From contig JBHLRP010000033.1 of NCBI GenBank assembly GCA_048882485.1, positions 1 through 14,663 on the forward strand: a stretch of 14,663 nt of DNA. Direction: 5' to 3'. Origin of the DNA: Candidatus Thorarchaeota archaeon. Lineage in GTDB: Archaea > Asgardarchaeota > Thorarchaeia > Thorarchaeales > Thorarchaeaceae. The notes below the pieces were generated by a model, which was not told the origin of the DNA, did not search any database, and worked only from the letters and a program-made list of their open reading frames with translations. Of this stretch, positions 4 to 14,663 are shown piece after piece; within the stretch, counting starts at the first letter, position 1, and each line of letters begins with the position of its first letter. The translations under genes were made by a program, and so were the position numbers.

Positions 4-1566
4 ATGGGCGAGGAACAAAAACTCCTATTCGTGCGTGAAAGCTCCGGCCTAGTAAAGGAAGTAGGTACGGGCTTTGCCCTGCTTCTTCCGATTGCACTAA
101 CTCTTGGACCTTGGTTCCACTTCTTTGGTCCTCAGGTCTCAACATGGTATGCAGGTGCACATCTAGTACCGATGTACGCCATCGGTTCAGCGATCGTCTT
201 CTTTGAGGCTATCTCACTGATGTGTCTTATGCTTGCCATGCCAAGATCTGGTGCCTCTTACCACTTTACTGGTAGAGGTCTCAGTCCAATCTTTGGTGTA
301 ATGGAAGGCTGGCGGTCCGTAATAACCAATCCTGTCTTCAGAGGCACTGGAAGCTTCTTCGCGGTTCAGATCTTCGCAGGCGGTCTAGCGGTTATTGGCA
401 ACGCCACAAACAACACTGGTTTGGTCAGTGCAGCAGTTGCTCTTGGATCAGACCCGATTCTGCTGTTTGTTGCAGCGGCAATAATGATCTTCATAGGATT
501 CATCTTCAGCTATCTCAGCGTGAAATGGCTTGGATGGTTTACGATAATCCTAGGGCTCATCAACATCATCGCGTTGTTGGTGGCAGATCTAGTCATACTA
601 TCCACTCCCATCACTCAGAGTGTATGGGACAATGTGTTTGGATCAGGCAGTTGGGCATCAACTGTTGGCGCATTTAACCCTACGACACCTGTCAACTATG
701 TCGACTTTAGCTGGGCGGCTGTCGGTCCTGCATTGATTCTAACCGTCGGCGGAATGTGGCCTTACCTCATCATGCCAGTGGCTGGTGAGGTGGCACAACC
801 AAGCAGAAACATCCCCTTAAGCAATGTAGGTGGATGGGCAGGTATCGCATTCTTCTTCCTGCTCTCAGCCTTTGCGGTTGAGTCAAGCATGGGAACGAAT
901 CTATACGGTATCAATGCCAATTCTTTCAGCGTCGGTATGTTCCCGGGATTCGGCAATTATGCTGCAATCATCTTGGCGGATAATCCGCTAGCGTGGTTCG
1001 TGATATTATGTCCGGTCTATGCTAGCGTTTTAGATTCCCCAAGCAATGCATTGTGGGTAACCAGGCCGATGCACTCCATGGCTATGGACAGATTCTGTCC
1101 TGAGGCATTCGCGAGTGTCCATCCAAAGTACCATGTGCCTCACATCACACTGTACTTCTGGTTGATCCTATCACTAGGAACCGTTGCCATCGCAACCATC
1201 CTAGTAGTCACTACTGGGACAGCTCTCAGCGCTCTGATAGGCGTAGCATTCACCTACGTGTTTATCAGATGGCAGATGGCGTTAGCTGCGGTATCATTAC
1301 CGTACTATCGACCGACACTATGGGAGCGGAGCGGAGCATGGAAGTTCCTGGGCATTCCACTAATTGCTATTGGTGGTCTGGTTTCAGGAGGCGCATTCTT
1401 CTACGCGCTTATCGCGTATACGCCTGATCCCACTGTTGCCTACGAGGTCTGGTTCACAGTAGTCGTGTACCTCATTGGTCAATTGGCCTACATGTACTAC
1501 GGCTCTAAGAACAAGGCTAAGGGCATCGAGATGTCTGCAATCTTTGGGCAGCTTCCGCCAGAGTAG
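4..1566 (+). CDS. APC-superfamily amino acid/amine permease (archaeal type)
   Basis: 520 aa with about 12 hydrophobic segments. N-terminal FVRESSGLVKE, internal AGEVAQP, TRPMHSMAMDRFCPEAFASVHPKYHVP (APC R..f.ma.D...P..f..v.pk...P motif) and C-terminal IFGQLPPE. Confidence 0.9.
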   Translation: MGEEQKLLFVRESSGLVKEVGTGFALLLPIALTLGPWFHFFGPQVSTWYAGAHLVPMYAIGSAIVFFEAISLMCLMLAMPRSGASYHFTGRGLSPIFGVMEGWRSVITNPVFRGTGSFFAVQIFAGGLAVIGNATNNTGLVSAAVALGSDPILLFVAAAIMIFIGFIFSYLSVKWLGWFTIILGLINIIALLVADLVILSTPITQSVWDNVFGSGSWASTVGAFNPTTPVNYVDFSWAAVGPALILTVGGMWPYLIMPVAGEVAQPSRNIPLSNVGGWAGIAFFFLLSAFAVESSMGTNLYGINANSFSVGMFPGFGNYAAIILADNPLAWFVILCPVYASVLDSPSNALWVTRPMHSMAMDRFCPEAFASVHPKYHVPHITLYFWLILSLGTVAIATILVVTTGTALSALIGVAFTYVFIRWQMALAAVSLPYYRPTLWERSGAWKFLGIPLIAIGGLVSGGAFFYALIAYTPDPTVAYEVWFTVVVYLIGQLAYMYYGSKNKAKGIEMSAIFGQLPPE

Positions 1567-1580
1567 ATCGCATATTAATG

Positions 1581-1617
1581 GAAGAGAGCAGCAAGCTCTC
1601 TTCTCCCCTTTCTTTTT
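1581..1617 (+). terminator. Stem-loop plus pyrimidine/T tract after the permease
   Basis: Perfect 9-bp stem GAAGAGAGC (1581-1589) / GCTCTCTTC (1595-1603) with a 5-nt loop, followed by TCCCCTTTCTTTTT. It begins 15 nt after the stop codon. Confidence 0.75.
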
Positions 1618-1657
1618 GGCAGCAATCCATCGAGGCTAATATCTGAAATATCTGGAA

Positions 1658-2638
1658 TTACCTCATCATATAGAAACCTGTGCCCTCTTTATCTTCATGT
1701 GGTTCCCAAGGCTCATCCTCAACGAAATCGTAGATAGGCGGAAATCGGTTTCTGCTCGCTTTACTTGCGAATGCTTCAAGCTTATCCCAGGTATTGTGGA
1801 ACCGTGATGGAAACGACCTAGGTCTAATCAATAGAACCTCCTCAACATCATCTGAAGAGTTATAGAAATCAAGTGCTTTCTGCGCATCTTCTGCAATTCT
1901 CCGTCGCTCTTCATTTTCGAGCACCTGTTGCTGATATGTATAAGAGTCCTCATACCACTGATATTTAATTGAGAACTCGTGGTTATCGTTGAAGATGCTA
2001 CTAATCAGTCTCCAAGGCCAGAATGTGGACATTTGAGCTAGTTGTGAACCCGCTCCATAGAGATCGATTGCCATTCCTTCCTTACAGAACACATAATCTG
2101 GACCCCTCTCACGAAATTTCTTGTTCGGCTTTGCTTGCCGCCCTCTCTTTGACCAATCATACCATTGAGCTCTATGTTTGCTTAGTATCTCACACTGCTT
2201 CGTTATGTACCTGACCGCTGCAGCAGTTCCATGATGCGCCAAGCCGGAAAGGCTTGGACGACCAAGACGTGCCTCTAGTAGTTCTCGTACAGTTGATACA
2301 TCCTCAAGAGGAATTGTGACCCAAATCGGAAATACCGCTTTCCCAAAGGGCATTGAAAACAGAAACACCATTCCAGCAGGTCCGATTGGTTCATAACCAT
2401 CAGGAAGTTCTTCGTGGAGCGGCCAGGTCTTCTCATCCTTGCAATGTTGAACCTCGCAAACTTCGAAGGAAACAACATCATTCCAATTCGCATCATATTG
2501 TGCTTGATACTCTTTCCTCCTCTTCTCTCTAGGGAGAATGAATCTTCCAAACTCTGTATTGATCTGCAGCTCTTGCTTCTCATTGAAGGGATCGATTCCT
2601 AAATACTCGAGATCTGGAAGTCTTTCTTTTTTCTTCAT
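1658..2638 (-). CDS. Hypothetical soluble protein, possibly with two PH-like domains
   Basis: 326-aa ORF filling the gap between neighbours, with an AGGGG element about 11 nt upstream of the ATG. No family confidently recognised. Confidence 0.75.
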   Translation of the reverse strand: MKKKERLPDLEYLGIDPFNEKQELQINTEFGRFILPREKRRKEYQAQYDANWNDVVSFEVCEVQHCKDEKTWPLHEELPDGYEPIGPAGMVFLFSMPFGKAVFPIWVTIPLEDVSTVRELLEARLGRPSLSGLAHHGTAAAVRYITKQCEILSKHRAQWYDWSKRGRQAKPNKKFRERGPDYVFCKEGMAIDLYGAGSQLAQMSTFWPWRLISSIFNDNHEFSIKYQWYEDSYTYQQQVLENEERRRIAEDAQKALDFYNSSDDVEEVLLIRPRSFPSRFHNTWDKLEAFASKASRNRFPPIYDFVEDEPWEPHEDKEGTGFYMMR

Positions 2639-2798
2639 TCACTTCATGTCCCCTTTTATCGAGAGTCTTTGGGCGACCTTCCGCTTGCCATATAGATTTC
2701 TTGCTAGTTCATTCTTAAACAAGCCGGTTCTTGCCGCTAATAAATCGTAAACATTAATTAGCTGGTATCAAGAGCTCTCACCAAGAGGACTTAACAAG

Positions 2799-3506
2799 AT
2801 GAGTAACCGAGTGAAGCGAGATAAGGAGACGAAACGCGCTCCAACGATCTCTCTTGATGGATTTAAATTCAATCCTGTAAATCTAGATCTGAGATTCAGC
2901 AAGAATCTATTGACTGTGTTGGATGGCTATCGCATCCAGAGAACCTACGATTTAGGATTTATTGACAAGAAAATCGGTGAAGGCGAGTTGCCTAGGAGTT
3001 TTGTCCAACAATGGGGAACCATGAGGAAGGCTCTAACCAAGCTCGCTGCTATTGGCCCGAAGGTTCCAGGTGTCGAGTCTTCATTGAATCGCAGGCAGAC
3101 TATGTCATTTTTTGGAATGGCCTCTCTCACCATTGCAGTTCCAATTCTCTTATTCACATATGTGTTCCAGCTCAATTGGCTAGCTCCAATCGGCCTTCCC
3201 CTTGCAGTAATCGCAGTTGGAATGATGTTTATTAGTTGGCTCACTTCAGCTTGGTATAATAGAAAGGTTGCATGGTTGATTCATGATTACGTGGAAGCCA
3301 ATCAAGCATTGGTATCCAATGAAAGGCGGCATTTCAAGAAATGGGTTCAAATCCTCATTCAGCACATTGCGAGTACAATGAGAAAGACAAATGAAGACCC
3401 CGACAAGAATCTAATCAAATTCTTCAATGATGATTACACGGGAATTGAGGTCCAGAAAAAGCCTGGTGGCTTAAGAAAGCACTACGTGATGAAGATTCTA
3501 TTGTAA
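2799..3506 (+). CDS. Hypothetical membrane protein (two central TM helices)
   Basis: 235 aa with a GAGGA RBS at 2785-2789. Hydrophobic hairpin FFGMASLTIAVPILLFTYVF / WLAPIGLPLAVIAVGMMFISWL sits between basic soluble domains. Confidence 0.8.
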   Translation: MSNRVKRDKETKRAPTISLDGFKFNPVNLDLRFSKNLLTVLDGYRIQRTYDLGFIDKKIGEGELPRSFVQQWGTMRKALTKLAAIGPKVPGVESSLNRRQTMSFFGMASLTIAVPILLFTYVFQLNWLAPIGLPLAVIAVGMMFISWLTSAWYNRKVAWLIHDYVEANQALVSNERRHFKKWVQILIQHIASTMRKTNEDPDKNLIKFFNDDYTGIEVQKKPGGLRKHYVMKILL

Positions 3507-3554
3507 AGAATGGGATAGTCCGACACTTTTCGAGTCAAGCCACTCGTTTGCACA

Positions 3555-4670
3555 CTAAACCAGTTTCTCCATTGGCGTGTAGTCAAGGTCAAATCCAAAA
3601 TGCCGAGGTCCTAAAGCCTCAAGCCCCTCTGCAGTTCGGAATACTTGCTCGGCTTTCATACCGATAACACTGACTTTGTCGCCCGCTTTGATGTCTGTGT
3701 TTGTAATTGGTTCGCCAGACTTCGCATCGATTATCTCAATGATATCCGGACTCATAACCCAAGGTTTGTCATCAAGCCATGTGACATGATTTTCATTCTT
3801 GAACCAGACTCGAAGCTCAGACTCGGGCTTAATACCACTTCCCTTGATTTTAGTTTCACCCCACATGTAGCCTGCCCGGTTCTCCCATGTCTTATCCACG
3901 ACCTCTCCCCGGAAGAGAATCCAGCCTCCTACATTTTCAACAATCTTGTCTGCAGGATCATCCCCTGTGTCACGACTCTCTCTAATCATCTTGCCAACTT
4001 CATAGCTTTTGGTCAGTGTTCCTGGGATAATTGCATCATGGAAATCCGAGCCTTTCAATGGAAAAGCAACATTTCCCAATCTTCCCCAGGCGGCTTCACT
4101 GAGTGCTTTTGAGATGCGCTCACCCATCTCATAATTGATGACATGTTCTACGATGCTCCTGTTGCCAAACCAATCGATGAGAGCCATGGGCGCCATCGAG
4201 AACCCCTTGATGCAAACGGTGTTTTGGCAAATCTCCGGAACAGCTCTTGCTGAATAATCCCCGTCAACGCACGGAATGCCGTGTTTCACAGCTGAATCTA
4301 TTGGTGCTGGTGTATTCACTCCTCCAAGCTCAAAGGGAGCCACAGCCGCGAACTTCACTCCCATATGGTCCTCTAACGCTTTGAGACCCGCAGCTAGTTC
4401 TTGCTCATAGTATTCCCAAGGAAATCGAGTTCTCGAAGCTTCAATTTCTGGAGTGGGAGGTGCGATAGTCCCGGAGTAGTAGGAACAAGCAACCCAGTCA
4501 TCATTCTTCACATGTTTCACGTCAACAATCTCTATTGTCTTCCCAGCATCCATGTGAGGATAGAGCATATCTAGTCCAAGCTGCTTTGAGCCTCCTCCGC
4601 CAGTACCAAAGAATGTGCATCCTGTTGTGAGGTCGTCCACATCGGTCCTCGTTTTTAATACTAAAGTCAT
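3555..4670 (-). CDS. DUF917-family protein (thiohydantoin desulfurase/desulfhydrase family), paralogue 1
   Basis: 371 aa carrying the family motifs GCTFFGTGGGG, PFELGGVNT, VDGDYSARAVPE, FKNEN and SPDII. Confidence 0.9.
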   Translation of the reverse strand: MTLVLKTRTDVDDLTTGCTFFGTGGGGSKQLGLDMLYPHMDAGKTIEIVDVKHVKNDDWVACSYYSGTIAPPTPEIEASRTRFPWEYYEQELAAGLKALEDHMGVKFAAVAPFELGGVNTPAPIDSAVKHGIPCVDGDYSARAVPEICQNTVCIKGFSMAPMALIDWFGNRSIVEHVINYEMGERISKALSEAAWGRLGNVAFPLKGSDFHDAIIPGTLTKSYEVGKMIRESRDTGDDPADKIVENVGGWILFRGEVVDKTWENRAGYMWGETKIKGSGIKPESELRVWFKNENHVTWLDDKPWVMSPDIIEIIDAKSGEPITNTDIKAGDKVSVIGMKAEQVFRTAEGLEALGPRHFGFDLDYTPMEKLV

Positions 4671-4718
4671 CTATTCCGAATCCCCATTAAAGTGACTTAA
4701 ACAAGGATTATGCTTGGC

Positions 4719-4730
4719 TCTATATATTTC
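4719..4730 (-). promoter_or_regulatory. Putative TATA box for DUF917 paralogue 1
   Basis: Minus strand reads GAAATATATAGA about 50 nt upstream of the ATG at 4670, downstream of the putative terminator of the phosphoesterase gene. Confidence 0.45.
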
Positions 4731-4739
4731 CAATGGACT

Positions 4740-4777
4740 AAAAACAAGGTTGGAAGGAAAGCGCAAGTGCACCTTCC
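4740..4777 (-). terminator. Putative terminator after the metallophosphoesterase
   Basis: Inverted repeat GGAAGG (4752-4757) / CCTTCC (4772-4777) with an inner GCG/TGC pairing, followed on the minus strand by AACCTTGTTTTT. Confidence 0.55.
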
Positions 4778-4792
4778 TCTCCGACATCAGAG

Positions 4793-5734
4793 CTAGAGTT
4801 CTACTCGGCCCGCTTGGACATTTCCATCTTCGATGGTGATGAGGAATCCTTTCAGAATGCCCTCTCTGTACTCTGAGCCTGGGTTAACGCAGAGCGTTCG
4901 CCCAATCTTTCTGTATCCTACACTTTCATGTATATGACCATGCATGCCCAATAATGGCTGATATTTCTCAATCACTGCTCGGACTGACTTGCTACCAACA
5001 GGCGTCATAATCTCATGTGCACCTGCCTTTGCTACGCGATGGTCCTCAGTCAACTGAGGTGCTACATCGAGTCCTGAGTTGAATGGAGGGTCATGAAAGT
5101 TGCAGAGTACGTTTGAGTAATCATCTGTTTCAAGGCGTGCAAATTCTGCTTCCAGCTTATCCAGCAGCTCCTCATCAGGACATTCTCTGTGAGTGTTCCA
5201 CGGTGTGGAGTTTACCCATTCCAGACTTATCATGGGATATCCATGAATATCAACAACTCTCTGTAGAGGATATATGATTCTCTCGTCATTCTTTATTATC
5301 TCATCAATAACATAGTCGTCATCATTTCCTGGATTCACAACGACCATTACGTCTTCAGGTATGCGTTCATTTGCCATATCCATCCATTCCTGAATTCTCT
5401 CCACCATTAGCCTTTCGAAGAGCTTGGTGATCTCTCCAGGTGTTTCCTGAAGATGCGCCAACTCATCCGGTGTAAGTATTGCTGGATAGAACCCCTCGTC
5501 CCTAGTGAACTTGATGAATCTGTCAAGATCCTTTTGCTTCTTGAAGGTCTTCTTTTGGCCTCGAGGGTTGGCATACCATCGGTCTTCTTTCTCTTGTATA
5601 ATCGGCATGATGGCTTTCCCGGTTAGGTCGCCGGACATCATCGCTACGTCTGCTTTGAACGCCTTTGGTGCCCGACACATTTTCTCCCAGGTCTGTTGGC
5701 TGCCGTGCGGGTCACAGGCTTGGAATATCCTCAT
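4793..5734 (-). CDS. Calcineurin-like metallophosphoesterase (Icc/COG2129-related) with a GNDD variant motif
   Basis: 313 aa. Motifs in canonical order: DPHGS (DxH), SGDLTG, PGNDD, FHDPP, HGHIHE, NPGS. GAGGT RBS at 5745-5741. Confidence 0.9.
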   Translation of the reverse strand: MRIFQACDPHGSQQTWEKMCRAPKAFKADVAMMSGDLTGKAIMPIIQEKEDRWYANPRGQKKTFKKQKDLDRFIKFTRDEGFYPAILTPDELAHLQETPGEITKLFERLMVERIQEWMDMANERIPEDVMVVVNPGNDDDYVIDEIIKNDERIIYPLQRVVDIHGYPMISLEWVNSTPWNTHRECPDEELLDKLEAEFARLETDDYSNVLCNFHDPPFNSGLDVAPQLTEDHRVAKAGAHEIMTPVGSKSVRAVIEKYQPLLGMHGHIHESVGYRKIGRTLCVNPGSEYREGILKGFLITIEDGNVQAGRVEL

Positions 5735-5960
5735 CAGATTACCTCGTGTTTGCTTCTGCGTTGTGAACTCTTCAGAGTCCCAGACACATCAGATTGTCGA
5801 TGTGACAGTTTAGCCTTGTTTAAAGTTTAATGGTGCAACACATTTTGCAGCTTAAGGAGATTTAGAAAAAAACGGAGTCTGTGCCATGTCACAAGATATT
5901 AATGCCATATGAAACATCGCAGGTGCAATAAGACCTTGAATTCTAGAGGAGTACAGAGAT
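5735..5960. promoter_or_regulatory. Divergent promoter region
   Basis: 226-bp gap between head-to-head genes. TATA-like TTTAAA (5819-5824, minus) and TATTAA (about 5897-5902, plus), plus several short dyads. Confidence 0.55.
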
Positions 5961-6761
5961 TTGAATGGGAAATATGGTCCGATTCTTGAAGACTTCATGG
6001 AGGAAGCAATGCGGATTGAGAAAGCAGCAGCTGAAATGGATATTCCACTACGACTAATTGGCTGTCTTGCATTCAGGTTGAAAAGTCCGGAGTATACAGA
6101 CCTCCATATCAAGATGGGAAGAGAAGTCACGGATATTGACTTCATAAGCTACTACAAACATCAGAAGAAACTACGAAATCTGTTCAGAGATGAACTAGGG
6201 TACCATTGGGTTCCTCCTGGATTTGCTCGTGCTAGCACTTTGAGAGACCTCTTCATCGATGTTGAACGTGAACGCAAGGTAGATGTCTTCTACGATCACC
6301 TTGAATTCTGTCATAATATTGATTTCAAGAAGAAGAACCGACTAGAAGTGGATAAGCCCACAATTCCGTTGGCGGAACTATTCCTCGAGAAGACACAGAT
6401 TGTCGAGATCAATGCAAAGGACTTGAAGGACCTTATCATTACCTTCCTTGCCCACGATGTAAGTACTGAGGATGATGACACACAGGTCAATGGCACGTAC
6501 ATAGCTAAGATGCTATCAGACGACTGGGGATTTTACTATACTGTGACAGAGAATCTCAAGAAATTCTTCGACTTCGTACCTACTGTTCCGGAAATCACTG
6601 AGGAACAAAAGGAGATAGTGTTATCGAGAGCCAAGAAGCTTCATCAGATGATTGAGGATGAACCGAAATCAAGGTCTTGGAAGCGTCGAGCAAAGGTTGG
6701 TCCTAAGCAACGCTGGTATAAAGTGGTTCATTCAATGGAAGGCACTCGCAACGCTGACTAG
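5961..6761 (+). CDS. Uncharacterised nucleotidyltransferase-fold protein (Pol-beta superfamily)
   Basis: 266 aa, TTG start 9 nt after GAGGAG (5946-5951). LIGCLAF (G34) ... TDIDF (D58/D60), third carboxylate in KVDVF (D108), and helical KDLKD (153-157). Family assignment is from motif recognition only. Confidence 0.7.
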   Translation: MNGKYGPILEDFMEEAMRIEKAAAEMDIPLRLIGCLAFRLKSPEYTDLHIKMGREVTDIDFISYYKHQKKLRNLFRDELGYHWVPPGFARASTLRDLFIDVERERKVDVFYDHLEFCHNIDFKKKNRLEVDKPTIPLAELFLEKTQIVEINAKDLKDLIITFLAHDVSTEDDDTQVNGTYIAKMLSDDWGFYYTVTENLKKFFDFVPTVPEITEEQKEIVLSRAKKLHQMIEDEPKSRSWKRRAKVGPKQRWYKVVHSMEGTRNAD

Positions 6762-6803
6762 CTTCGGCGCCTTCCATAGAGGCAATAATTGGAGAGAGAT
6801 ACA

Positions 6804-7922
6804 ATGAAACTAACAAAGCAGAATTCCTATGACATGCTGACGGGCGTGGGAATACTAGGGACTGGAGGCGGAGGTGATCCCGTAACTTTTGGGAAGCCAA
6901 TGGTCGATTGGGACCACGACCGAGGGCGTGTCTACGAGGTCACACCTCCATCTGAGATCAAAGATGATGCATTCATTGTCTGTGGCGGTTACATGGGAAG
7001 CGTAAAGGCATTCACCTCTATAGGGGACATGCTTGAGGCTTGGGAAACCAGATATGAGCTCCATGAAGCAATGAAAATGTCTGAGAAAATCGCCGGCAAG
7101 AAGGTCAACCACCTTGTACCATTTGAGCTGGGCGGGACGAATACTACTGTCATGTTGTCACTAGCAGCTAGAGCAGGGATAACCACAGTAGATGGGGATG
7201 GACTCGGCCGCTCTGCTCCAGAGAGCCAGATGATTTCGTTTGTTGGATATGGAATTGAGCTATGCCCTATGCCACTTGTTACGAAGAATGGGAGCATAGT
7301 AGTTGTTGAGAAGTCCACTTCACCAGCTCTTGCTGATGAGATTGGCAGATTCGCAGTGGTTCAGGATGGTGGAGCTGGTGCTAACAACCATTACCATCAG
7401 ACTGGCGCACAGTTGAAGAAATCCGTGATTCCAGACAGCATTTCGAAATCAATTGAGCTTGGTGAAGCTGTACGTGATGCGAATGAGAACAAAAAGGATC
7501 CAATTGATGCTTTCTTAGATACTATGGGCGGCCAGAAACTCATCAAGGGCAAGATTGAGGAAGTGAAAGGTGAGGATAGGGCAGGCCATTGGCATGTAGT
7601 CGTGAGAATCAAGCCGGAGAACTTGAAGAGCAAATTCGAAGTTGTCGTGAAGAATGAGTACATGATGGCCATGAGCGATGGAAAGCCTGTAGTAATGTTT
7701 CCTGATCTTATTTGCATGCATTATCCTGACACCGGTCATGGAGTCATGAGTGCCAACCTCGAAGAAGGGATGGAAGTAGTTGTGACAGCATCTCCAGCGC
7801 ATGAAAGGTTGAGATATGCTGGGAGTACAGAGATTGGTCGAAAGGCATTCCATCCTGAGCGTTATGGTCATCCTGAACTTGAGTACAAACCGATGGAAGA
7901 AATCATCGTAAACCTCCGATAG
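6804..7922 (+). CDS. DUF917-family protein, paralogue 2
   Basis: Motifs GVGILGTGGGGDP, PFELGGTNT, VDGDGLGRSAPE, VKNEY and FPDLI. The ATG at 6804 is preferred over TTG 6789 because GGAGA (6791-6795) is correctly spaced and the N-terminus then aligns with paralogue 1. Confidence 0.9.
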   Translation: MKLTKQNSYDMLTGVGILGTGGGGDPVTFGKPMVDWDHDRGRVYEVTPPSEIKDDAFIVCGGYMGSVKAFTSIGDMLEAWETRYELHEAMKMSEKIAGKKVNHLVPFELGGTNTTVMLSLAARAGITTVDGDGLGRSAPESQMISFVGYGIELCPMPLVTKNGSIVVVEKSTSPALADEIGRFAVVQDGGAGANNHYHQTGAQLKKSVIPDSISKSIELGEAVRDANENKKDPIDAFLDTMGGQKLIKGKIEEVKGEDRAGHWHVVVRIKPENLKSKFEVVVKNEYMMAMSDGKPVVMFPDLICMHYPDTGHGVMSANLEEGMEVVVTASPAHERLRYAGSTEIGRKAFHPERYGHPELEYKPMEEIIVNLR

Positions 7923-7970
7923 ATAATTTGAAAGGCGACCGACTTTTTCGGTTCTTACTGGTGTTGCATC

Positions 7971-8738
7971 ATGAAACGGATTGCTCTAATCGGTGCTACC
8001 GGGATAGATTGGTGGGTGGATGAGAAGAAGCGAGATTTCGTGAGGTTACATACTCCTGTGGGTTATGAAATAGTAAACTATACTCCAAAATACGGTACAC
8101 ACAGTGTTGAATCGCATGTTGATGAAGCATACAATGCACCATTCATTTTGGAGCAAATAGTGAAAGCGGAGAAGGACGGCTGTGATGCAATTGTCATCGA
8201 TTGTGCTTGTGACCCCGTTCTTGATGCAGCTAGAGAAGTCTGTAGGGTACCTGTTGTTGCTCCACGAAACTCAGCCCTTCACGTCGCACTTACTCTAGGG
8301 ACAAAATTCAGCATAATTACAGTTCAAGGCCAATCGCTTCTGAGATGCATGCAAGAGGGCGTTCGGAAAGAGGGTCTCGAGTCATTCTGCGCAAGTGTTC
8401 GGCATCTAACAATGCCAGTTCTAGACATTCCGAAGAATCCAAAAGATACACAGGAAGAACTCCTACAGATGTGCAAGACGGCTATAGAAGAGGATGGGGC
8501 AGATGTCATTGTCCTCGGATGTACGGCACTTTCTCATGAGGTTGATCTCGAGCCTATCATGAAGGAACTTGGCGTTCCTATCTTGGACCCATGGGTGATA
8601 GCAATTCGAATGGCTCATACGCTGGCTGAAACTGGATTGACCCATAGCAAGATTGCCTATCCAAATCCTCCACGGAAGGGCATCACAGAAATCCCTGCGA
8701 TCGAGGGTGTCTTTGATGACGTCCTAAAGTCTGATTGA
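7971..8738 (+). CDS. Asp/Glu/hydantoin racemase family protein (hydantoin/allantoin racemase-like)
   Basis: 255 aa with both catalytic Cys motifs, DAIVIDCACDPVLDAARE and ADVIVLGCTAL. C-terminal GLTHSKIAYPNPP is typical of hydantoin racemases. Confidence 0.9.
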   Translation: MKRIALIGATGIDWWVDEKKRDFVRLHTPVGYEIVNYTPKYGTHSVESHVDEAYNAPFILEQIVKAEKDGCDAIVIDCACDPVLDAAREVCRVPVVAPRNSALHVALTLGTKFSIITVQGQSLLRCMQEGVRKEGLESFCASVRHLTMPVLDIPKNPKDTQEELLQMCKTAIEEDGADVIVLGCTALSHEVDLEPIMKELGVPILDPWVIAIRMAHTLAETGLTHSKIAYPNPPRKGITEIPAIEGVFDDVLKSD

Positions 8739-8753
8739 GGAATATACATTTCA

Positions 8754-9995
8754 CTAGGCCTTGCTTCTTCTTAGTAGGACCATCATCATCAGCAAGATTA
8801 CCACTGCCAGAAGTGCATACATGAGATACGGGAATGTGAGACCGAAGCCCGTCACCCAGCCTCCAACGATTGGACCGAGGAAGAGTCCCACACCACCCAT
8901 ACTCTCGACTAGTCCAGCATGAGCTCCTTTCTCCAAATCCGTTGCTGAAACAACCAGATACAATGCTCCCAGATAGTTGAATCCCACCCCCAATCCGGAA
9001 AGCACCATTGCAATCGCAAACACCCAGATGTCTATGAATGAGAACAAAAGGAAGCCTGAAATCGCAGACAGAATTGCTCCAAGAAGTATGACTGTCTTCA
9101 TGTAGTCTCCAGGCATTCTGGCGATTGCAATGAATCCAGCAGTTCGAACAATGTTCCATATCAGAAGCAGGTTTCCGAAATCTTCTGTAGCAAAAGGATA
9201 TCCTAGGAGAACGAGATTCTCAATGTAGGACGGGAATAGGGCCAGAATCACAGTCGATACTACACCCCATAGCATCACAGAGAGATATGCTGCAATGAAT
9301 ATGGGTGACGCTTTGCTTGCCTTTTGCTCTCGAGTCGTGATTTGAGTCGCCGTATTCATGTTCTCAGGTGTTTCTGGCTTTCTCTTGTACGCTTGAAGGA
9401 ATAATGCGATAATTGCCAATGAGAATATCTCAATTGCTAGGATTACATAGATGCTCGATAGGTCTCCGTAGATACCAGCTAGATACGCAATAATCATCGG
9501 TGGGAGGATCATTGACGCACTCCATGCTGTTGAGAAATTGCCAAGAGTCGCTACCTGTGATTCTGGTTCAAGCTCCGCAACCATTCCTTCAATGGTTGGA
9601 GCGATGAATCCAAAGACTAAGCCCTCCACTGTTCGTATCGCTATCAAATGAATAGTTTGAATGAATGGAAAAAGATAGAGAATAATGACCCCGATATAGG
9701 CTGCTGTGGAAACTAAAAGCGTCTTCTTTCTGCCAACCCTATCTGAAAGACGACCACCAATTGCAGGTGAAAACATATACACGAATCCAAACACACCGAA
9801 AGCGATTCCTGACTCTAATGGGGTTCCTCCAAGTCGAAATACATACCAAGATGCAAAGATCTCAGTCGTTCCTAATACGAACACAACGAGAAACGTCGTA
9901 ATGTACCCCACAACTCGATTCTTCTTTCGAATTTCAGGGGTTAAATCCGGTTCTCCATCTACATCTAGGCAGAAGGGTTCACATGGTTCGTGCAT
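8754..9995 (-). CDS. MFS transporter
   Basis: 413 aa with about 12 TM segments. Motif A GGRLSDRVGRKK, IRTVEGLVFG and GLFLGPIVGG. GGTGAG lies just upstream of the ATG. Confidence 0.92.
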   Translation of the reverse strand: MHEPCEPFCLDVDGEPDLTPEIRKKNRVVGYITTFLVVFVLGTTEIFASWYVFRLGGTPLESGIAFGVFGFVYMFSPAIGGRLSDRVGRKKTLLVSTAAYIGVIILYLFPFIQTIHLIAIRTVEGLVFGFIAPTIEGMVAELEPESQVATLGNFSTAWSASMILPPMIIAYLAGIYGDLSSIYVILAIEIFSLAIIALFLQAYKRKPETPENMNTATQITTREQKASKASPIFIAAYLSVMLWGVVSTVILALFPSYIENLVLLGYPFATEDFGNLLLIWNIVRTAGFIAIARMPGDYMKTVILLGAILSAISGFLLFSFIDIWVFAIAMVLSGLGVGFNYLGALYLVVSATDLEKGAHAGLVESMGGVGLFLGPIVGGWVTGFGLTFPYLMYALLAVVILLMMMVLLRRSKA

Positions 9996-10016
9996 ATTCT
10001 CACCGCATGCATCTGG

Positions 10017-11030
10017 CTACTTGAGATGTGGAGCAATCTCTTTGCCAATCAGCTTCGCTGTTTCAATTGGATTGGTACCTGGAACTGGAAATGCCACAGG
10101 AGTATTTGCTCCGGCATCGATCATATCTTGTATCTGCTTGATACATGATTCAACATCTCCTACAACGCAAAGCTCTTGCAGCATCTTGTCAGTAATCAAT
10201 TCTCCAAGCCTAGCATCGTCGCCTTTCTCTGCAGCCTCTCTAAACGCCATTGTATCTTCAGGTCGAACTCCTGCATGTTCCATCAGAGGGCCTCCTGCCT
10301 GAGAATGAGGCAAGTATAGCTTTGAAAACTCTCTAACCGTGTTGTATGCCTTATCCAAGTCATCATCAACCACGACTGGAAGATATCCTACCATCTCGAA
10401 ACCATCCAGGGATTTCCCTACTTCATTAGCACCCGCTTCAACCCTTTCCCAAGCGAATTTCGTATAGTTTGGAGTGCAGAAGATAGACATTATAGCCCCG
10501 TCCCCAATCTCTCCTGCAAGCTTCATTCCCTGCTTTCCTTCGAAGGCAAGATAGATTGGAACTCTTTTTCTAACAGGTTCGAAGATCAACTGGACAGCCT
10601 TGGTTTCGAAGTATTTCCCCCTGTGAGTAATACTCTCTCCAGTCATTATCTTCCTTATGACCTCGATACTCTCTTTGGTTCTCGAGATTGGTTTCTTATC
10701 CCAGAGTCCCATTTGATCCATCCAGAATGGTACGCCTGATCCTAGACCAAAGACAGCACGTTTGCTGCACATCTCATCTATCGTGGCGAATTCCATGGCT
10801 ATAAGCGCTGGGTGCCGAGAGTATGGATTGACAACACCTAGTCCAATTCGTATCTTCTCGGTTGCCATAGACCCTGCAGCCATGTATGGAATCCCGCCTC
10901 TGAAGAAGTAGTCCTCAGCGAACCAGACTGATCCTAATCCCGCAGCTTCTGTCGCTTTCGCCAGTTCAACACCTTCTTTCACTGGGAAAACACCTGTCAT
11001 AGCCATTCCAAATTCCTTGTAACCTTTCAT
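10017..11030 (-). CDS. LLM-class (Mer-like, probably F420-dependent) oxidoreductase
   Basis: 337 aa. SVWFAEDY, ATEKIRIGLGVVNPYSRHPALIA, RAVFGLGSG and VPIYLA...LAGEIGDG. GGTGAG RBS at 11041-11036. The cofactor assignment is inferred. Confidence 0.88.
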   Translation of the reverse strand: MKGYKEFGMAMTGVFPVKEGVELAKATEAAGLGSVWFAEDYFFRGGIPYMAAGSMATEKIRIGLGVVNPYSRHPALIAMEFATIDEMCSKRAVFGLGSGVPFWMDQMGLWDKKPISRTKESIEVIRKIMTGESITHRGKYFETKAVQLIFEPVRKRVPIYLAFEGKQGMKLAGEIGDGAIMSIFCTPNYTKFAWERVEAGANEVGKSLDGFEMVGYLPVVVDDDLDKAYNTVREFSKLYLPHSQAGGPLMEHAGVRPEDTMAFREAAEKGDDARLGELITDKMLQELCVVGDVESCIKQIQDMIDAGANTPVAFPVPGTNPIETAKLIGKEIAPHLK

Positions 11031-11050
11031 GACATCTCACCATTTCTTTC

Positions 11051-11082
11051 AAAACAAGAGAGAAGGGGGAAGAAATCCCCCT
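11051..11082 (-). terminator. Intra-operon hairpin plus pyrimidine tract after AOR
   Basis: Minus strand AGGGGGA-TTTCT-TCCCCCT (11082-11064) starts 3 nt after the AOR stop and is followed by TCTCTCTTGTTTT. Confidence 0.6.
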
Positions 11083-11085
11083 ATT

Positions 11086-13005
11086 CTAGGGCAACTTGCC
11101 GATGCTCTCTAGATAGTCTGCTACATCCTTGAGACCAAGCTTCTCGTAGGTCTCTCTCTTGGGCCAACTTGTCTTGGGATCCCATTCGTGAAGTGCATAG
11201 TACCTATCGAGCATGCCATCCAACTCCTCCTGGGAGTTCATCTCGCCCTTGAGTGGACCACTAGCGGCTCCCTCATTCATTAACCTCCAGGGCAGATTGT
11301 CATGCTCCCTGGTGGCTCCACGTGTCACATTGAACGCCTTCTCAAGTGTCACAACTCTGCGGCCAGTGCACATCATCTCATCCTCAGTCAAGGAGATGCC
11401 TGTCGCTGCTTCATACAGTCGCGCCATGTTATCGGGATTGACTCCAAAAGCGGCTGTAGAGGTGAATACACAGAATCCCAAAGCTTCCGTTATCTCATAG
11501 CAGTCTTCATGCCAGCGTACAATCTCGGCGCGAAAATCAGTGAAGTGAGGTGACGCCCACTTCTTGTCACCTGTCACCTTCTCGATGACTTCGACCGCCT
11601 CAGGGCTAGCTCCGAATTCTGCAAAGGTTTCAGTCATGAGATGGTCATTTCCTCGGGGGTTGACTGCAAAGGCTAATGCATATGCTTTCGCAGACCTTGT
11701 TTCGACATTAGACTGCTCAAGACCCTTGGAGTTCATGATAGCCCATTTATAGGAGTCGTGGCCAACCTTCTTTGTTGCTATCTTGAGACCATCTCCAAGG
11801 AGGGTCCCCAGCTTGCCTTTTCGTAAGGCCAATGCCTCAACCGTCTTTAGAGTTTCATCAAGCTTGCCCCAGTCAAGCTCAAGCCCATCTGTGTCTTCTT
11901 TCGTAAGAACTCCCCGCAGGTAGCTCTCAATAGCCCACTGGGAAACAGTGCCTGCTGTAATAGTGTCCAATCCCAGACGGTTGCACATCTCGTTGAGCAG
12001 AAGGACACCTTCAGTGTCAATGATTCCTGGACCGTTGCCAAGTGCTCCAAAGGTTTCGTATTCTGGGCCTCCACTTGCTATACCTGCATTAGGCCCTTCT
12101 TCAATGGTGGAGTATCGGTGGCAGCCAATTGTGCAGCCAAAGCATGCAACCCGTCTTTTAAGATACCCTTTCTCAACCAAAGCTTGGCCAGTTATTGGGT
12201 GGACATTTTCAGTATACCCAGTTTGCCAGTTCTTTCCAGGGAACGCATGTAACTCATTGACTGCCGCAATGGACCCTGCGGTGCCAAAGTCATGAAGTCC
12301 TATAGAACCACTGTCCTTACGGAGATTCTCCCTCATCTCTTCAGCGACATCGGCAAACTTCTTTGGATCCTTTACCCTCACCGGTTTGGTGCCCCTAACA
12401 GCAATAGCTTTGAGATTCTTCTTGCCCATGACAGCAGCTCCACCACCCCTCCCTGCAGCGTGGTATAGGGAGCACTGAATTGACGCGGCTCTAACAAGTT
12501 TCTCTCCAGCGGGGCCAATATAGAGTCCCTTAGAATCGTTACCATGCCACTTCTTCAACAGAGTGTCGGTCTCTATAATGTCCTTACCCCAGAGGTCCTT
12601 GGCATCCCTGATTTCTACGTCGTCATCATTGATCCAGATATAGGACGGCTTTTGAGCAACACCATGAACCACAAGGTGATCATAGCCTGCAAACTTCAAC
12701 TCAGCACCCCAATGGCCTCCTGTATTGCTCTTCAGATAGAGTCCGGTGGTGCAGCCCACGGTAGTGACTGAGGTCCTCCCTGATGCAGGGGCGGTGGTGC
12801 CAGTCACAGCTCCTGGCGCATAAATGATGATATTCCTGGGGTCGTCCCATGTGATATCTGGGTCCTTGCAATAATCCCAGAGGATTCTGGCGTTGATTCC
12901 TCTGGAACCAACGTAAAGGCGTTTCCACTCCTCTGGAATGTCATCTTTCCAAATCTTTCCGCTTGATAGGTCGATGTGTAGTATCCTTCCTTGATGTCCA
13001 TTCAT
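11086..13005 (-). CDS. aor: Tungsten-containing aldehyde:ferredoxin oxidoreductase (AOR/WOR family), catalytic subunit
   Basis: 639 aa. SNTGGHWGAELKFAGYD, IGPAGE, GRGGGAAVMGKKNLKAI, Fe-S ligands CFGCTIGC plus EALGFC, and GPEYET, NRLGLDTI, NPRG, MLDRYY. Confidence 0.95.
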   Translation of the reverse strand: MNGHQGRILHIDLSSGKIWKDDIPEEWKRLYVGSRGINARILWDYCKDPDITWDDPRNIIIYAPGAVTGTTAPASGRTSVTTVGCTTGLYLKSNTGGHWGAELKFAGYDHLVVHGVAQKPSYIWINDDDVEIRDAKDLWGKDIIETDTLLKKWHGNDSKGLYIGPAGEKLVRAASIQCSLYHAAGRGGGAAVMGKKNLKAIAVRGTKPVRVKDPKKFADVAEEMRENLRKDSGSIGLHDFGTAGSIAAVNELHAFPGKNWQTGYTENVHPITGQALVEKGYLKRRVACFGCTIGCHRYSTIEEGPNAGIASGGPEYETFGALGNGPGIIDTEGVLLLNEMCNRLGLDTITAGTVSQWAIESYLRGVLTKEDTDGLELDWGKLDETLKTVEALALRKGKLGTLLGDGLKIATKKVGHDSYKWAIMNSKGLEQSNVETRSAKAYALAFAVNPRGNDHLMTETFAEFGASPEAVEVIEKVTGDKKWASPHFTDFRAEIVRWHEDCYEITEALGFCVFTSTAAFGVNPDNMARLYEAATGISLTEDEMMCTGRRVVTLEKAFNVTRGATREHDNLPWRLMNEGAASGPLKGEMNSQEELDGMLDRYYALHEWDPKTSWPKRETYEKLGLKDVADYLESIGKLP

Positions 13006-13006
13006 G

Positions 13007-13498
13007 CTATGCAGCCTCCTTTTTCAATTCACGATACATGGCCATTCTAGCCGACCGTAGCTTCTTCTTCTGTTTCAACAAGTCATCTGTGGCGCCCACC
13101 CACTGAATTGCACCGGGTACACAGTGCTTTGCACAATATGGATCGCCTCCACAAAGGTCACAGATTATCGCCTTATTGTCCTCTGGGTGCAGTCGAATTC
13201 CATGGTAAGGACAGGCTTCTACACATTTAGCCTGGCCTGTGCATTTGCTATTGTCAACAGTGATGATTCCTGTTTTATCATCTCTTGATAATGCCTTTTC
13301 AGGACATGAATCAATACATGGATGTGCATCGCATTGTTCACACAAGAACTGAATGCCTAGCGCGATGTCCTCTTTCTTGTAGACTTTCACTCTCCCTCTA
13401 TATGGGTCGAATAGGTCTTCCTTCGTCAAAGAACAAGCTAGAGAACACTGCTTGCAGCCAGTACATTTGTCCATATCGACTAATAATAAATTGGCCAT
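13007..13498 (-). CDS. Multi-cluster Fe-S electron-transfer subunit (DmsB/HydN/CooF-like), partner of the AOR
   Basis: 163 aa with four Cys groups: CTGCKQCSLAC, CEQCDAHPCIDSCP, CTGQAKCVEACP and CDLCGGDPYCAKHC. Its stop is 1 nt from the AOR start, and a GGAGG RBS lies within its 3' end. Confidence 0.93.
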   Translation of the reverse strand: MANLLLVDMDKCTGCKQCSLACSLTKEDLFDPYRGRVKVYKKEDIALGIQFLCEQCDAHPCIDSCPEKALSRDDKTGIITVDNSKCTGQAKCVEACPYHGIRLHPEDNKAIICDLCGGDPYCAKHCVPGAIQWVGATDDLLKQKKKLRSARMAMYRELKKEAA

Positions 13499-13701: not shown

Positions 13702-14663
13702 ATGGTCAATCGACGAATTATGCAGAAGACAATCCGCCAATTAGCTCAGCTCAAGAATGCCTCGGATACTGTTACAGATATCGAGATTCTACGACTAGTC
13801 TTCGTTCGCATACTCGAGGAAATCCATAGGGAATTCGAAAAGCCACCAAGATCTCTCGACTATAGACATCTCGCTCTATTTGCTGATTCGCGTTCCAGCT
13901 GGAACCCAGAATATGACGACAACATCCTAGATTTCAACTTGGAACCCAAGAATGACGAATCACTGCTCGACACCAGAGTTTTGATACTGGGTAACGTGTT
14001 TGAGGCATTCAAAAGCCAGAAAAGCAGAAAGAACCGGGGAGTCTACTACACGCCATATAGTCTTGCAAGAACCATAAGCAGTCTCTCCATTGATGCTTTC
14101 AAATCGCAAAACCGCATTTCGAAGGTTTCCGAATTACTCGGTCTCAAGATACTGGACAATGCGTGTGGATGTGGGATATTCCTTTTTGCTATGCTCGAAG
14201 AGATTCTGAGAAGAATCTCAGTAGGAGCAGAGAAGATTCTATTGGAAGGCATTGATGTAGAAACCACCAAAATCGATTCTATAGCGTCATATCTGCTAGG
14301 CAATTCACTCTTTGGGCATGATGTTGATGAAGATGCGATAGCAATTGCCGAGGCTCAGCTTTGGCTAGCTCTATACTCTATCAACAGCACCATTCCTTCA
14401 TTGATTCGCATACCAAACCTCAGAGTTACAGATACTCTTGTTTCAAAAGTACTCGATGAGAAATACGACATTGTGATAGGAAATCCACCATATATGCGAC
14501 TCACATCCGGGAAGATTGAGTTTAAGAAGACTATCAAAGCACGATATGATACCACACGAGAATACAACACACACGCTCTCTTTGTTCAGGCATCATTATC
14601 TCAACTGAAGCAGGACGGAATCCTTGGCTATTTGATTCACAAGAATCTTCTTACACTCGACAC
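13702..14663 (+). CDS. N6-adenine DNA methyltransferase (gamma class, Eco57I/M.TaqI-like), 3'-truncated by the window
   Basis: Translated by hand: frame +1 is open from ATG 13702 (GAGGT RBS at 13691-13695) to the window end. It starts MVNRRIMQK and contains ILGNVFE, RKNRGVYYTP (motif X), ILDNACGCGIFL (motif I, 14149-14184), LFGHDVD, YDIVIGNPPY (NPPY at 14482-14493) and LKQDGILGYL. Confidence 0.93.
   Translation, partial: MVNRRIMQKTIRQLAQLKNASDTVTDIEILRLVFVRILEEIHREFEKPPRSLDYRHLALFADSRSSWNPEYDDNILDFNLEPKNDESLLDTRVLILGNVFEAFKSQKSRKNRGVYYTPYSLARTISSLSIDAFKSQNRISKVSELLGLKILDNACGCGIFLFAMLEEILRRISVGAEKILLEGIDVETTKIDSIASYLLGNSLFGHDVDEDAIAIAEAQLWLALYSINSTIPSLIRIPNLRVTDTLVSKVLDEKYDIVIGNPPYMRLTSGKIEFKKTIKARYDTTREYNTHALFVQASLSQLKQDGILGYLIHKNLLTLD

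Follow-up and report, generated by a model that had tools for sequence, protein, structure and literature searches.

Which compound would an Asgard archaeon process with two DUF917 proteins, a hydantoin-type racemase, a nucleotidyltransferase (NTase), a metallophosphoesterase (MPE) and a tungsten/molybdenum oxidoreductase of the AOR family, and do the genes for these proteins form one system? The question arises from a stretch of 14,663 bases (the window) at the beginning of contig C33 of a 3.96-Mb, 90.5%-complete metagenome-assembled genome. The proteins of the window have their nearest homologues mainly in sequences labelled Candidatus Thorarchaeota (Asgard). Thirteen long open reading frames (ORFs) occupy the window, and twelve of them, from a permease to an Fe-S protein at bases 4-13498, form a conserved unit. 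This block is read here, tentatively and with a confidence somewhat short of even, as one self-contained accessory catabolic island of three modules, which would act on an imported nitrogen-ring or amino-acid-derived compound. The features of the window, with the evidence for each, are:

4-1566, plus strand: APC-superfamily permease, 521 amino acids (PF00324, 71.8 bits)
1658-2638, minus strand: hyp326, a soluble protein (no Pfam match)
2799-3506, plus strand: hyp235, a small membrane protein (no Pfam match; hydropathy scan)
3555-4670, minus strand: DUF917A, S-Me-THD-like, 371 amino acids (PF06032, 137.7 bits; PF20906, 185.1 bits)
4793-5734, minus strand: probable metallophosphoesterase, MPE, 313 amino acids (motifs; Pfam below cut-off)
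5735-5960: divergent intergenic region of 226 nt between the starts of MPE and NTase
5961-6761, plus strand: Pol-beta-fold nucleotidyltransferase, NTase, 266 amino acids (fold and motifs; no Pfam match)
6789-7922, plus strand: DUF917B, 377 amino acids (PF06032, 123.5 bits; PF20906, 134.6 bits)
7971-8738, plus strand: Asp/Glu/hydantoin-family racemase, 255 amino acids (PF01177, 136 bits)
8739-8753: convergent gap of 15 nt between the racemase and MFS genes, read from the sequence
8754-9995, minus strand: major facilitator superfamily (MFS) transporter, 413 amino acids (PF07690, 108 bits)
10017-11030, minus strand: luciferase-like oxidoreductase (LLM), Mer-like (PF00296, Bac_luciferase, 205 bits)
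11086-13005, minus strand: tungsten/molybdenum AOR-family oxidoreductase, 639 amino acids (AFOR_N, 237 bits; AFOR_C, 352 bits)
13007-13498, minus strand: poly-[4Fe-4S] electron-transfer subunit of the AOR, 163 amino acids (Fer4 domains)
13702-14661, plus strand: Eco57I/MmeI-type methylase, just outside the island (Pfam)

Conservation and linkage of the twelve genes

All twelve genes are syntenic in seven relatives belonging to at least five genera, with identities ranging from 41% (hyp235) to 98%, and the same synteny recurs on L029, a contig of 916 kb from a Thorarchaeote that is less closely related. The initial annotation of this DNA had drawn a candidate pathway between 3555 and 13498. Its right border is correct. 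Its left border is not, because the synteny of all twelve genes from the permease onward places the start of the conserved unit upstream of 3555, and the permease, hyp326 and hyp235 belong to it as well. The genes that it named coincide exactly with the ORFs, including the 15-nt convergent gap, and Pfam bears out both DUF917 domains, Asp_Glu_race, MFS_1, Bac_luciferase, AFOR_N and AFOR_C, and Fer4. The gene spacing defines three arms: MPE followed by DUF917A; NTase, DUF917B and racemase, spaced by 27 and 48 nt; and Fe-S, AOR, LLM and MFS, spaced by 1, 55 and 21 nt, the MFS gene being last. The promoter regions of the island contain no shared operator or repeat, only repeats at chance level.

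The arms have been rearranged in some relatives without losing one another. On contig C11 of genome G378, which is contiguous, the order is ThiS (reverse), then Fe-S, AOR, LLM, MPE and DUF917A (all forward), hyp235 (reverse), hyp326 (forward), the permease (reverse) and, further on, NTase, DUF917B and racemase (forward) and MFS (reverse). Genomes G041/G383 have this order on two contigs that were joined via a split MPE gene. In G378 and G041 the AOR arm is thus separated from MFS and lies directly upstream of MPE and DUF917A, co-directional with them; in G378 the MFS gene remains beside the racemase gene after the move. G041 was not accepted as an independent lineage, as it belongs to the same GTDB family (it equals G383), and the rearrangement counts as one within the family.

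Two other gene orders come from outside the family. Locus L046 is a metagenome contig of 245 kb whose lineage is more remote; homologues of the island genes lie there inside a 17-kb stretch: DUF917B (54% identity), NTase (44-49%), MPE (47-49%), the permease (32%), a gene like hyp235, AOR (58%), Fe-S (43%), LLM (30%) and an Asp/Glu racemase (32%). The stretch also holds GlcD/GlcF-like, GcvH, pyridine-nucleotide disulfide oxidoreductase and aminotransferase genes. In G047, of the sister family f15, an NTase homologue has the AOR orthologue (62%) as its immediate neighbour, and genes resembling those for LLM, Fe-S and DUF917A (41%) lie within 6 kb. Of the recurring partners of the island AOR clade, the NTase/MPE pair keeps closest to it. 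Functional linkage is supported because the AOR arm keeps the company of NTase, MPE and DUF917 genes in G378/G041, in L046 and in G047. The gene set is thus a real unit conserved across genera, and the AOR operon and the DUF917 block, whose separation in relatives would have spoken against a common pathway, stay linked in three other gene orders.

The distribution was examined in 400 Asgard genomes. An AOR orthologue occurs in 57 of the 85 genomes of the family to which the window belongs, in one of the four of f15 and in none of the 310 others; a DUF917B orthologue occurs in 53 of 85 and three of four, respectively, and in no other family. Among the 90 high-quality genomes (completeness of 90% or more, contamination of 5% or less), the two genes occur together in 17 and are both missing from the remaining 73. 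Inside genera the presence of AOR is patchy (2/5, 1/3 and 4/7 genomes). The block is bordered downstream by the Eco57I/MmeI-type methylase and, in L042, L043 and L029, by an Mrr-like nuclease gene upstream of the permease. This patchiness and the restriction-type genes at the borders are the behaviour of an accessory island, which roughly two thirds of the genomes of a single Thorarchaeota family carry. Joint presence and absence is weak evidence of joint function, since the genes lie side by side in related genomes, and the rearranged gene orders are the stronger evidence.

In some relatives AOR is split into two ORFs or has a single in-frame TGA (L029:15207-17133; G358:C3). Single in-frame TGA stops are likewise found in DUF917B (G376:C140, G386:C94, G394:C100). 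Assembly errors, pseudogenes or recoding may account for these interruptions. Genomes of one GTDB family carry three NCBI phylum labels (Thorarchaeota, Promethearchaeota and Odinarchaeota), which makes a taxonomy of protein matches that is based on names unreliable.

Three modules and a proposed route

The first module would serve uptake and comprises the APC permease, the membrane protein hyp235 with its two transmembrane helices, NTase and MPE. The NTase matches neither Pfam nor NCBIfam. Its AlphaFold model has a pLDDT of 90, and all 50 matches listed by Foldseek are nucleotidyltransferase-fold entries or complexes, with E of about 1e-3. The structural search gave Z values of 11.8 for ANT(2'')-Ia, 11.6 for MenT1 and 10.1 each for LnuA and JHP933. 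Residues G34, D58-x-D60 and D108 are invariant in an alignment of 19 homologues. The fold of the model and these catalytic residues agree with the earlier assignment, and the protein is a Pol-beta-fold nucleotidyltransferase of an unnamed family. That family has 2,595 cluster representatives at 50% identity with E<=1e-3, 797 of them with E<=1e-30, and some of its members are labelled Anaerolineae. A third NTase paralogue, on contig C238 of G041, stands beside a ZIP transporter gene without MPE.

The phosphoesterase assignment of the initial annotation is probably correct as well, although Pfam gives MPE only 21.4 and 17.9 bits against cut-offs of 27-28. The metal-binding motifs are visible in the translation: CDPHG (DxH), SGDLTG (GD), PGNDD (GNDD), an H and HGHIHE (GHxH). 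The atlas comparison scored 0.98 to metallophosphoesterase clusters, with 229 of 256 features shared. MPE and NTase form the same head-to-head pair in L027 and L028. A reading of the pair as a defence system was rejected; PADLOC gave no match for the NTase, and 31.6 bits to a candidate family for MPE.

The permease is syntenic with the block in all relatives compared and is probably its importer. A paralogous or orthologous permease stands beside the NTase/MPE pair in L046, in L028/G041 and on the bacteria-like contigs L050 and L052. A hydropathy scan of hyp235 found a central hydrophobic hairpin of two helices at about residues 101-153. A paralogue with the same kind of hairpin adjoins a second permease/MPE/NTase set on contig C32, and weak homologues adjoin the permease in L046 and L028. 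The protein hyp326 is restricted to the island, where it is syntenic at 48-77% identity. Its model (pLDDT 65) weakly resembles tandem PH-like proteins, namely BBS5 and Rtt106 (both at TM about 0.22) and Pob3/SSRP1. These matches were too weak to be accepted as a function; such a fold, if real, would be notable in a metabolic gene cluster of an Asgard archaeon. The suggestion of the atlas that hyp326 is a rolling-circle Rep protein was made on a low feature count (142 of 256) and was not accepted either.

The uptake module also occurs alone. On three contigs with 59-69% GC (L050:2545-9783, L051:9001-14496 and L052:8822-12400) an NTase (32-47% identity) has an MPE orthologue (35-39%) next to it or nearby, and the APC permease is present in two of the three loci. 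These contigs are probably bacterial because they carry genes for sigma-70 or TetR/DeoR-type regulators and because of their GC content. Arginase, glutamine-synthetase-like, OTCase and deacetylase genes surround the loci. The triad of NTase, MPE and APC permease has the appearance of an independent conserved module.

The second module, for ring chemistry, consists of the two DUF917 proteins and the racemase. DUF917A and DUF917B have diverged to 30% identity. In both, the two domains, S-Me-THD_N and S-Me-THD_C, score above the gathering threshold (124-185 bits against a cut-off of 27). The motifs GxGGGG, ExGGxN, DxDxxxRxxPE, NE and PD, which are invariant in eleven diverse family members, are kept by both, and G22-G27, E114, G116-G117, D136, D138, R142, P145-E146 and N292-E293 are present in both paralogues. 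Because all family-invariant motifs are kept, both proteins are probably active enzymes. The only solved relative, 2o3i, is uncharacterised. The initial annotation took characterised DUF917 enzymes to be thiohydantoin desulfurases, a statement that rests here on NCBIfam and Pfam names. Against the two desulfurase models NF058529 and NF058532, which have cut-offs of 440 and 450 bits, DUF917A scores 53.4 and 41.4 bits and DUF917B 54.9 and 71.7 bits. With 41-72 bits against such cut-offs, neither is an equivalog of the desulfurases.

Orthologues of DUF917A with 44-49% identity are found in Desulfurococcaceae, Thermoplasmatales and Firmicutes. Beside them stand one or two more DUF917 genes, a racemase of the Asp/Glu/hydantoin family, an NCS1 permease, a nitroreductase with DUF6092, and M20 or M29/NicX peptidases; AOR is never among the neighbours in these three groups. 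Such neighbours point to cyclic amides and ureides generally, not to C-S chemistry. A paper on cyclodipeptide oxidase (CDO) reported an enrichment of CDO-like clusters in DUF917 and hydantoin racemases and suggested hydantoin-like substrates (10.1101/2023.09.25.559410). Homologues of DUF917B with 51-55% identity are widespread on other Asgard-labelled contigs, and in L055:9069-11137 and L056:9068-11137 a gene of this type begins about 20 nt after an EamA transporter gene, the two making up a minimal unit of transporter and DUF917. The nearest solved structures to the racemase are 3qvj, a putative hydantoin racemase, and 5lfd, an allantoin racemase. Its cysteines align with those of 3qvj (DCACDP with ACFGDP, and VLGC with VLGC), and we take the two to be the catalytic pair of hydantoin racemases.

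The third module is the redox arm, which is specific to island-bearing lineages. The LLM scores 200.9 bits against the Mer model TIGR03555 (cut-off 348.7) and 215.3 bits against PRK02271 (cut-off 276). It is therefore below both cut-offs, and the true Mer of the genome (443 bits) is encoded on contig C3. Its top NCBIfam and PDB matches are all F420 enzymes, of which Mer is the nearest solved. On these matches the F420-linked step of the initial annotation is plausible, and the LLM is probably F420-dependent. The AOR gives 361 bits to the AOR of P. furiosus (1aor) and 275 bits to FOR. Its orthologues inside the family are 79-96% identical, and the other AORs of the genome, encoded by at least four genes, reach at most 36%; the protein appears to represent a clade specific to the island. 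The stop of the Fe-S gene lies 1 nt from the start of AOR. The Fe-S protein is closest to 9mqx_E, WOR5 (6x1o_B) and AorA (8c0z_C), which are small subunits of two-subunit AORs, and the AOR itself has the AFOR_N and AFOR_C domains with an adjoining poly-[4Fe-4S] subunit, as members of that group do.

The MFS transporter has only weak matches, to efflux families of the DHA1 type. No tblastn match supports its orthology with the racemase-adjacent MFS of Desulfurococcaceae. The initial annotation had included an import step. That the MFS performs it is doubtful, given the conserved APC permease at the head of the block and the weak efflux-type matches of the MFS; the import step itself is retained, with that permease in its place.

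What the sequences show are the identities, folds and motifs of the genes, together with their conservation, co-occurrence and linkage through rearrangement. The route proposed for the island, whose catabolic direction, order of steps, substrate class and cofactors we infer from its genes, would run as follows. An amino-acid-derived or organocation-type compound would enter via the APC permease. NTase and MPE may then tag and untag it as a nucleoside monophosphate (NMP) phosphodiester, or they may regulate uptake as a writer/eraser pair. Tagging of a small molecule is suggested by the similarity of the NTase fold to the antibiotic O-nucleotidyltransferases ANT(2'') and LnuA. The nucleotidylation or phosphodiester step of the initial annotation is plausible, and is put no higher than that, because the fold is nearest to small-molecule O-nucleotidyltransferases and the partner is a metallophosphoesterase. 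The racemase would equilibrate a stereocentre adjoining a ring carbonyl, and the DUF917 proteins would hydrolyse the ring or an exocyclic group of a cyclic amide or ureide (hydantoin-, imidazolone- or diketopiperazine-like). The Mer-like LLM and the two-subunit AOR would oxidise an alcohol or aldehyde product to the acid, reducing F420 and ferredoxin, and the MFS may move the product or a second substrate.

Several observations weigh against this route. The window contains no substrate-specific enzyme that would identify the compound, and no peptidase, carbamoylase or aminotransferase that would complete a hydantoin or diketopiperazine pathway. The genome, at 90.5% completeness, yielded three CofE genes and no CofD. 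In L046 the LLM and the racemase, at 30-32% identity, are no nearer to those of the island than paralogues are, and in f15 the DUF917B-type gene is located away from AOR. The two contigs examined that have DUF917B after EamA carry no other island gene. As the genes are adjacent, a single deletion or insertion would explain their joint presence and absence, and most of the evidence for linkage comes from one family and two or three related, non-independent lineages. The choice of a catabolic over a biosynthetic direction is likewise an interpretation.

A bolder version would make the NTase, MPE and APC permease, perhaps with the two-helix membrane protein, an undescribed transport-coupled system of archaea and bacteria, which here feeds a new fermentation of nitrogen heterocycles yielding reduced F420 and ferredoxin. 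Either the imported compound would be trapped or activated as an NMP phosphodiester and released later, or the permease would be switched by reversible nucleotidylation. This version is unlikely. If true, such a fermentation would be new for Asgard archaea.

Surroundings and alternative explanations

Contig C32:327-11481 abuts the start of the window. It carries a paralogous set of permease, hyp232 (a membrane protein with two transmembrane helices), MPE (50% identity) and NTase (46%), followed by genes for a corrinoid protein, a pyrrolysine-free MttB, an ATC_hydrolase-family protein, GlcD/GlcF-like proteins, ThiS and Mrr. The same layout is contiguous in L042 (G005:C2:146000-159700). MttB, at 439 bits, falls short of the trimethylamine methyltransferase cut-off (525), and the set is probably a module for quaternary amines or methylated compounds. 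Among 40 near-complete genomes of the family, the NTase set of the island is present in 28 and the second, MttB-linked set in 6. The island is independent of the MttB module for this reason, and the module was rejected as a required part of the pathway, since most island-bearing genomes lack it. A few kilobases from the island, at L043:6904-11512 (G020) and L028:13020-18271, genes for a glycyl-radical enzyme, an aminotransferase, a PfkB kinase and a KDPG-type aldolase form another uncharacterised catabolic module.

The main rival of the island reading is that three independent modules have been co-inherited, or transferred, as one accessory segment in which the AOR arm serves general aldehyde oxidation. 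Each module does occur alone elsewhere: NTase, MPE and permease in L050-L052, DUF917 and racemase without AOR in L022, L024 and L025, and DUF917B with EamA only. The flanks of restriction type (Mrr, Eco57I-type) and the patchiness within genera are those of mobile accessory DNA, and further catabolic modules abound in the region (MttB, glycyl-radical enzyme, GlcD/F). However, the island AOR clade is not seen away from NTase, MPE or DUF917 genes in four gene orders, and in G378 the AOR arm adjoins MPE and DUF917A in the same direction. The Fe-S, AOR, LLM and MFS genes are separated by 1-55 nt, all twelve genes are kept after rearrangement, and general duties could fall to the other AOR genes of the genome. 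On balance a composite segment is rather doubtful, while being the explanation that competes most closely with a single island.

Improbable, by comparison, is a biosynthetic, tailoring or detoxification cluster, in which the NTase modifies a small molecule that the MFS exports, the DUF917 proteins and racemase shape a cyclic scaffold, and AOR and LLM work reductively from acid to aldehyde to alcohol. AORs are reversible, a point in its favour, as are the nearness of the NTase fold to antibiotic-modifying nucleotidyltransferases and the efflux families among the best matches of the MFS. The CDO paper also raises secondary-metabolite roles for DUF917/racemase clusters (10.1101/2023.09.25.559410). 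Yet the island encodes no scaffold-building enzyme (nonribosomal peptide synthetase, cyclodipeptide synthase (CDPS), polyketide synthase or ATP-grasp), and a conserved permease of the importer type heads it. The neighbouring modules are catabolic, and on the bacteria-like contigs the family members lie among genes of arginine and polyamine catabolism.

The initial annotation had proposed a sulfur-containing heterocycle or a modified amino acid as the substrate and a search of the rest of the genome for hydantoinase or ergothionase. Its observation that the window has no ergothionase, urocanase-like hydratase or hydantoinase was borne out by a scan of the window, and no hydantoinase-type ATPase gene adjoins the DUF917 genes. 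The genome search found only a single Hut-like pair of HAL and urocanase on C4, one HyuA/HyuB pair on C2 among the housekeeping genes for GluRS, GNAT and ThiI, and a short Hydantoinase_A gene on C36 with ATP-grasp and kinase genes, all unlinked to the island. The nitroreductase and DUF6092 pair of the CDO-like clusters was likewise not found in the window by Pfam; PF19585 had no match in the genome, where the control search was unmatched too. In favour of C-S hydrolysis, for instance of an ergothioneine-derived compound, are the two desulfurases, which are the only named members of the family and the best NCBIfam matches of both DUF917 proteins, the ThiS-like and ATC_hydrolase-family genes of the wider neighbourhood, and the non-pyrrolysine MttB system next door in some genomes, which could demethylate a betaine. 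ThiS/MoaD-like proteins are explained equally well by the synthesis of tungstopterin for the AOR. With desulfurase scores far below cut-off, no linked partner of the ergothioneine pathway, an MttB set missing from most island-bearing genomes, and close DUF917A relatives whose contexts point to nitrogen heterocycles and peptides, the sulfur-specific version appears to draw on family naming and is very improbable.

Comparison with known systems

Asgard archaea are mostly uncultured, and the substrates they use are deduced from genome sequences. The island is a clearly delimited and repeatedly retained set that ties the barely characterised DUF917 proteins to redox enzymes relevant to energy metabolism, an AOR and an F420-type LLM, and it brings to light an unnamed NTase family with about 2,600 sequence clusters, which in archaea and bacteria alike accompanies a phosphoesterase and a permease. 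The substrate of the island, once found, would add a carbon or nitrogen source to models of Asgard metabolism in sediments. Besides ergothioneine catabolism, DUF917 and the NTase family would then have a second biochemical anchor. The literature searched, which lay outside the primary papers on ergothioneine catabolism, contains no description of the island gene set or of the NTase-MPE-permease unit.

The NTase shares the Pol-beta core G...DxD...D and a helical C-terminal domain (Z 10-12) with ANT(2'')-Ia, LnuA and toxins of the MenT/AbiEii type. It is only 12-17% identical to ANT(2'')-Ia, LnuA and MenT and belongs to no Pfam family. Its partners are always a metallophosphoesterase and usually an APC permease, not an antitoxin or a resistance context.

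The two-subunit tungsten AORs, WOR5 of P. furiosus (6x1o) AorAB(C) of Aromatoleum (8c0z) and 9mqx, have in common with the island a poly-ferredoxin small subunit encoded immediately upstream of the catalytic subunit. The island AOR, however, is a separate clade with at most 40% identity outside island lineages. It lacks an FAD subunit, and its genes are set among those for DUF917, NTase and MPE.

With the thiohydantoin and S-methyl thiohydantoin desulfurases (NF058529, NF058532) the island DUF917 proteins share the two-domain fold family and the motifs GxGGGG, ExGGxN and DxDxxxRxxPE. Unlike the desulfurases, they have no linked ergothionase, thiourocanate hydratase or hydantoinase, and there are two diverged paralogues instead of one enzyme. 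The CDO-like clusters without CDPS (L022, L024, L025) share with the island a DUF917A-type protein (44-49%), a second DUF917, an Asp/Glu/hydantoin racemase and a transporter. The island has none of their nitroreductase/DUF6092, NCS1 permease or M20/M29 peptidase genes; it has instead the APC permease, the NTase/MPE pair and the LLM/AOR/Fe-S arm. It is therefore best classed as a DUF917/racemase catabolic cluster with unprecedented partners, the association of DUF917 with racemases being already in the literature (10.1101/2023.09.25.559410).

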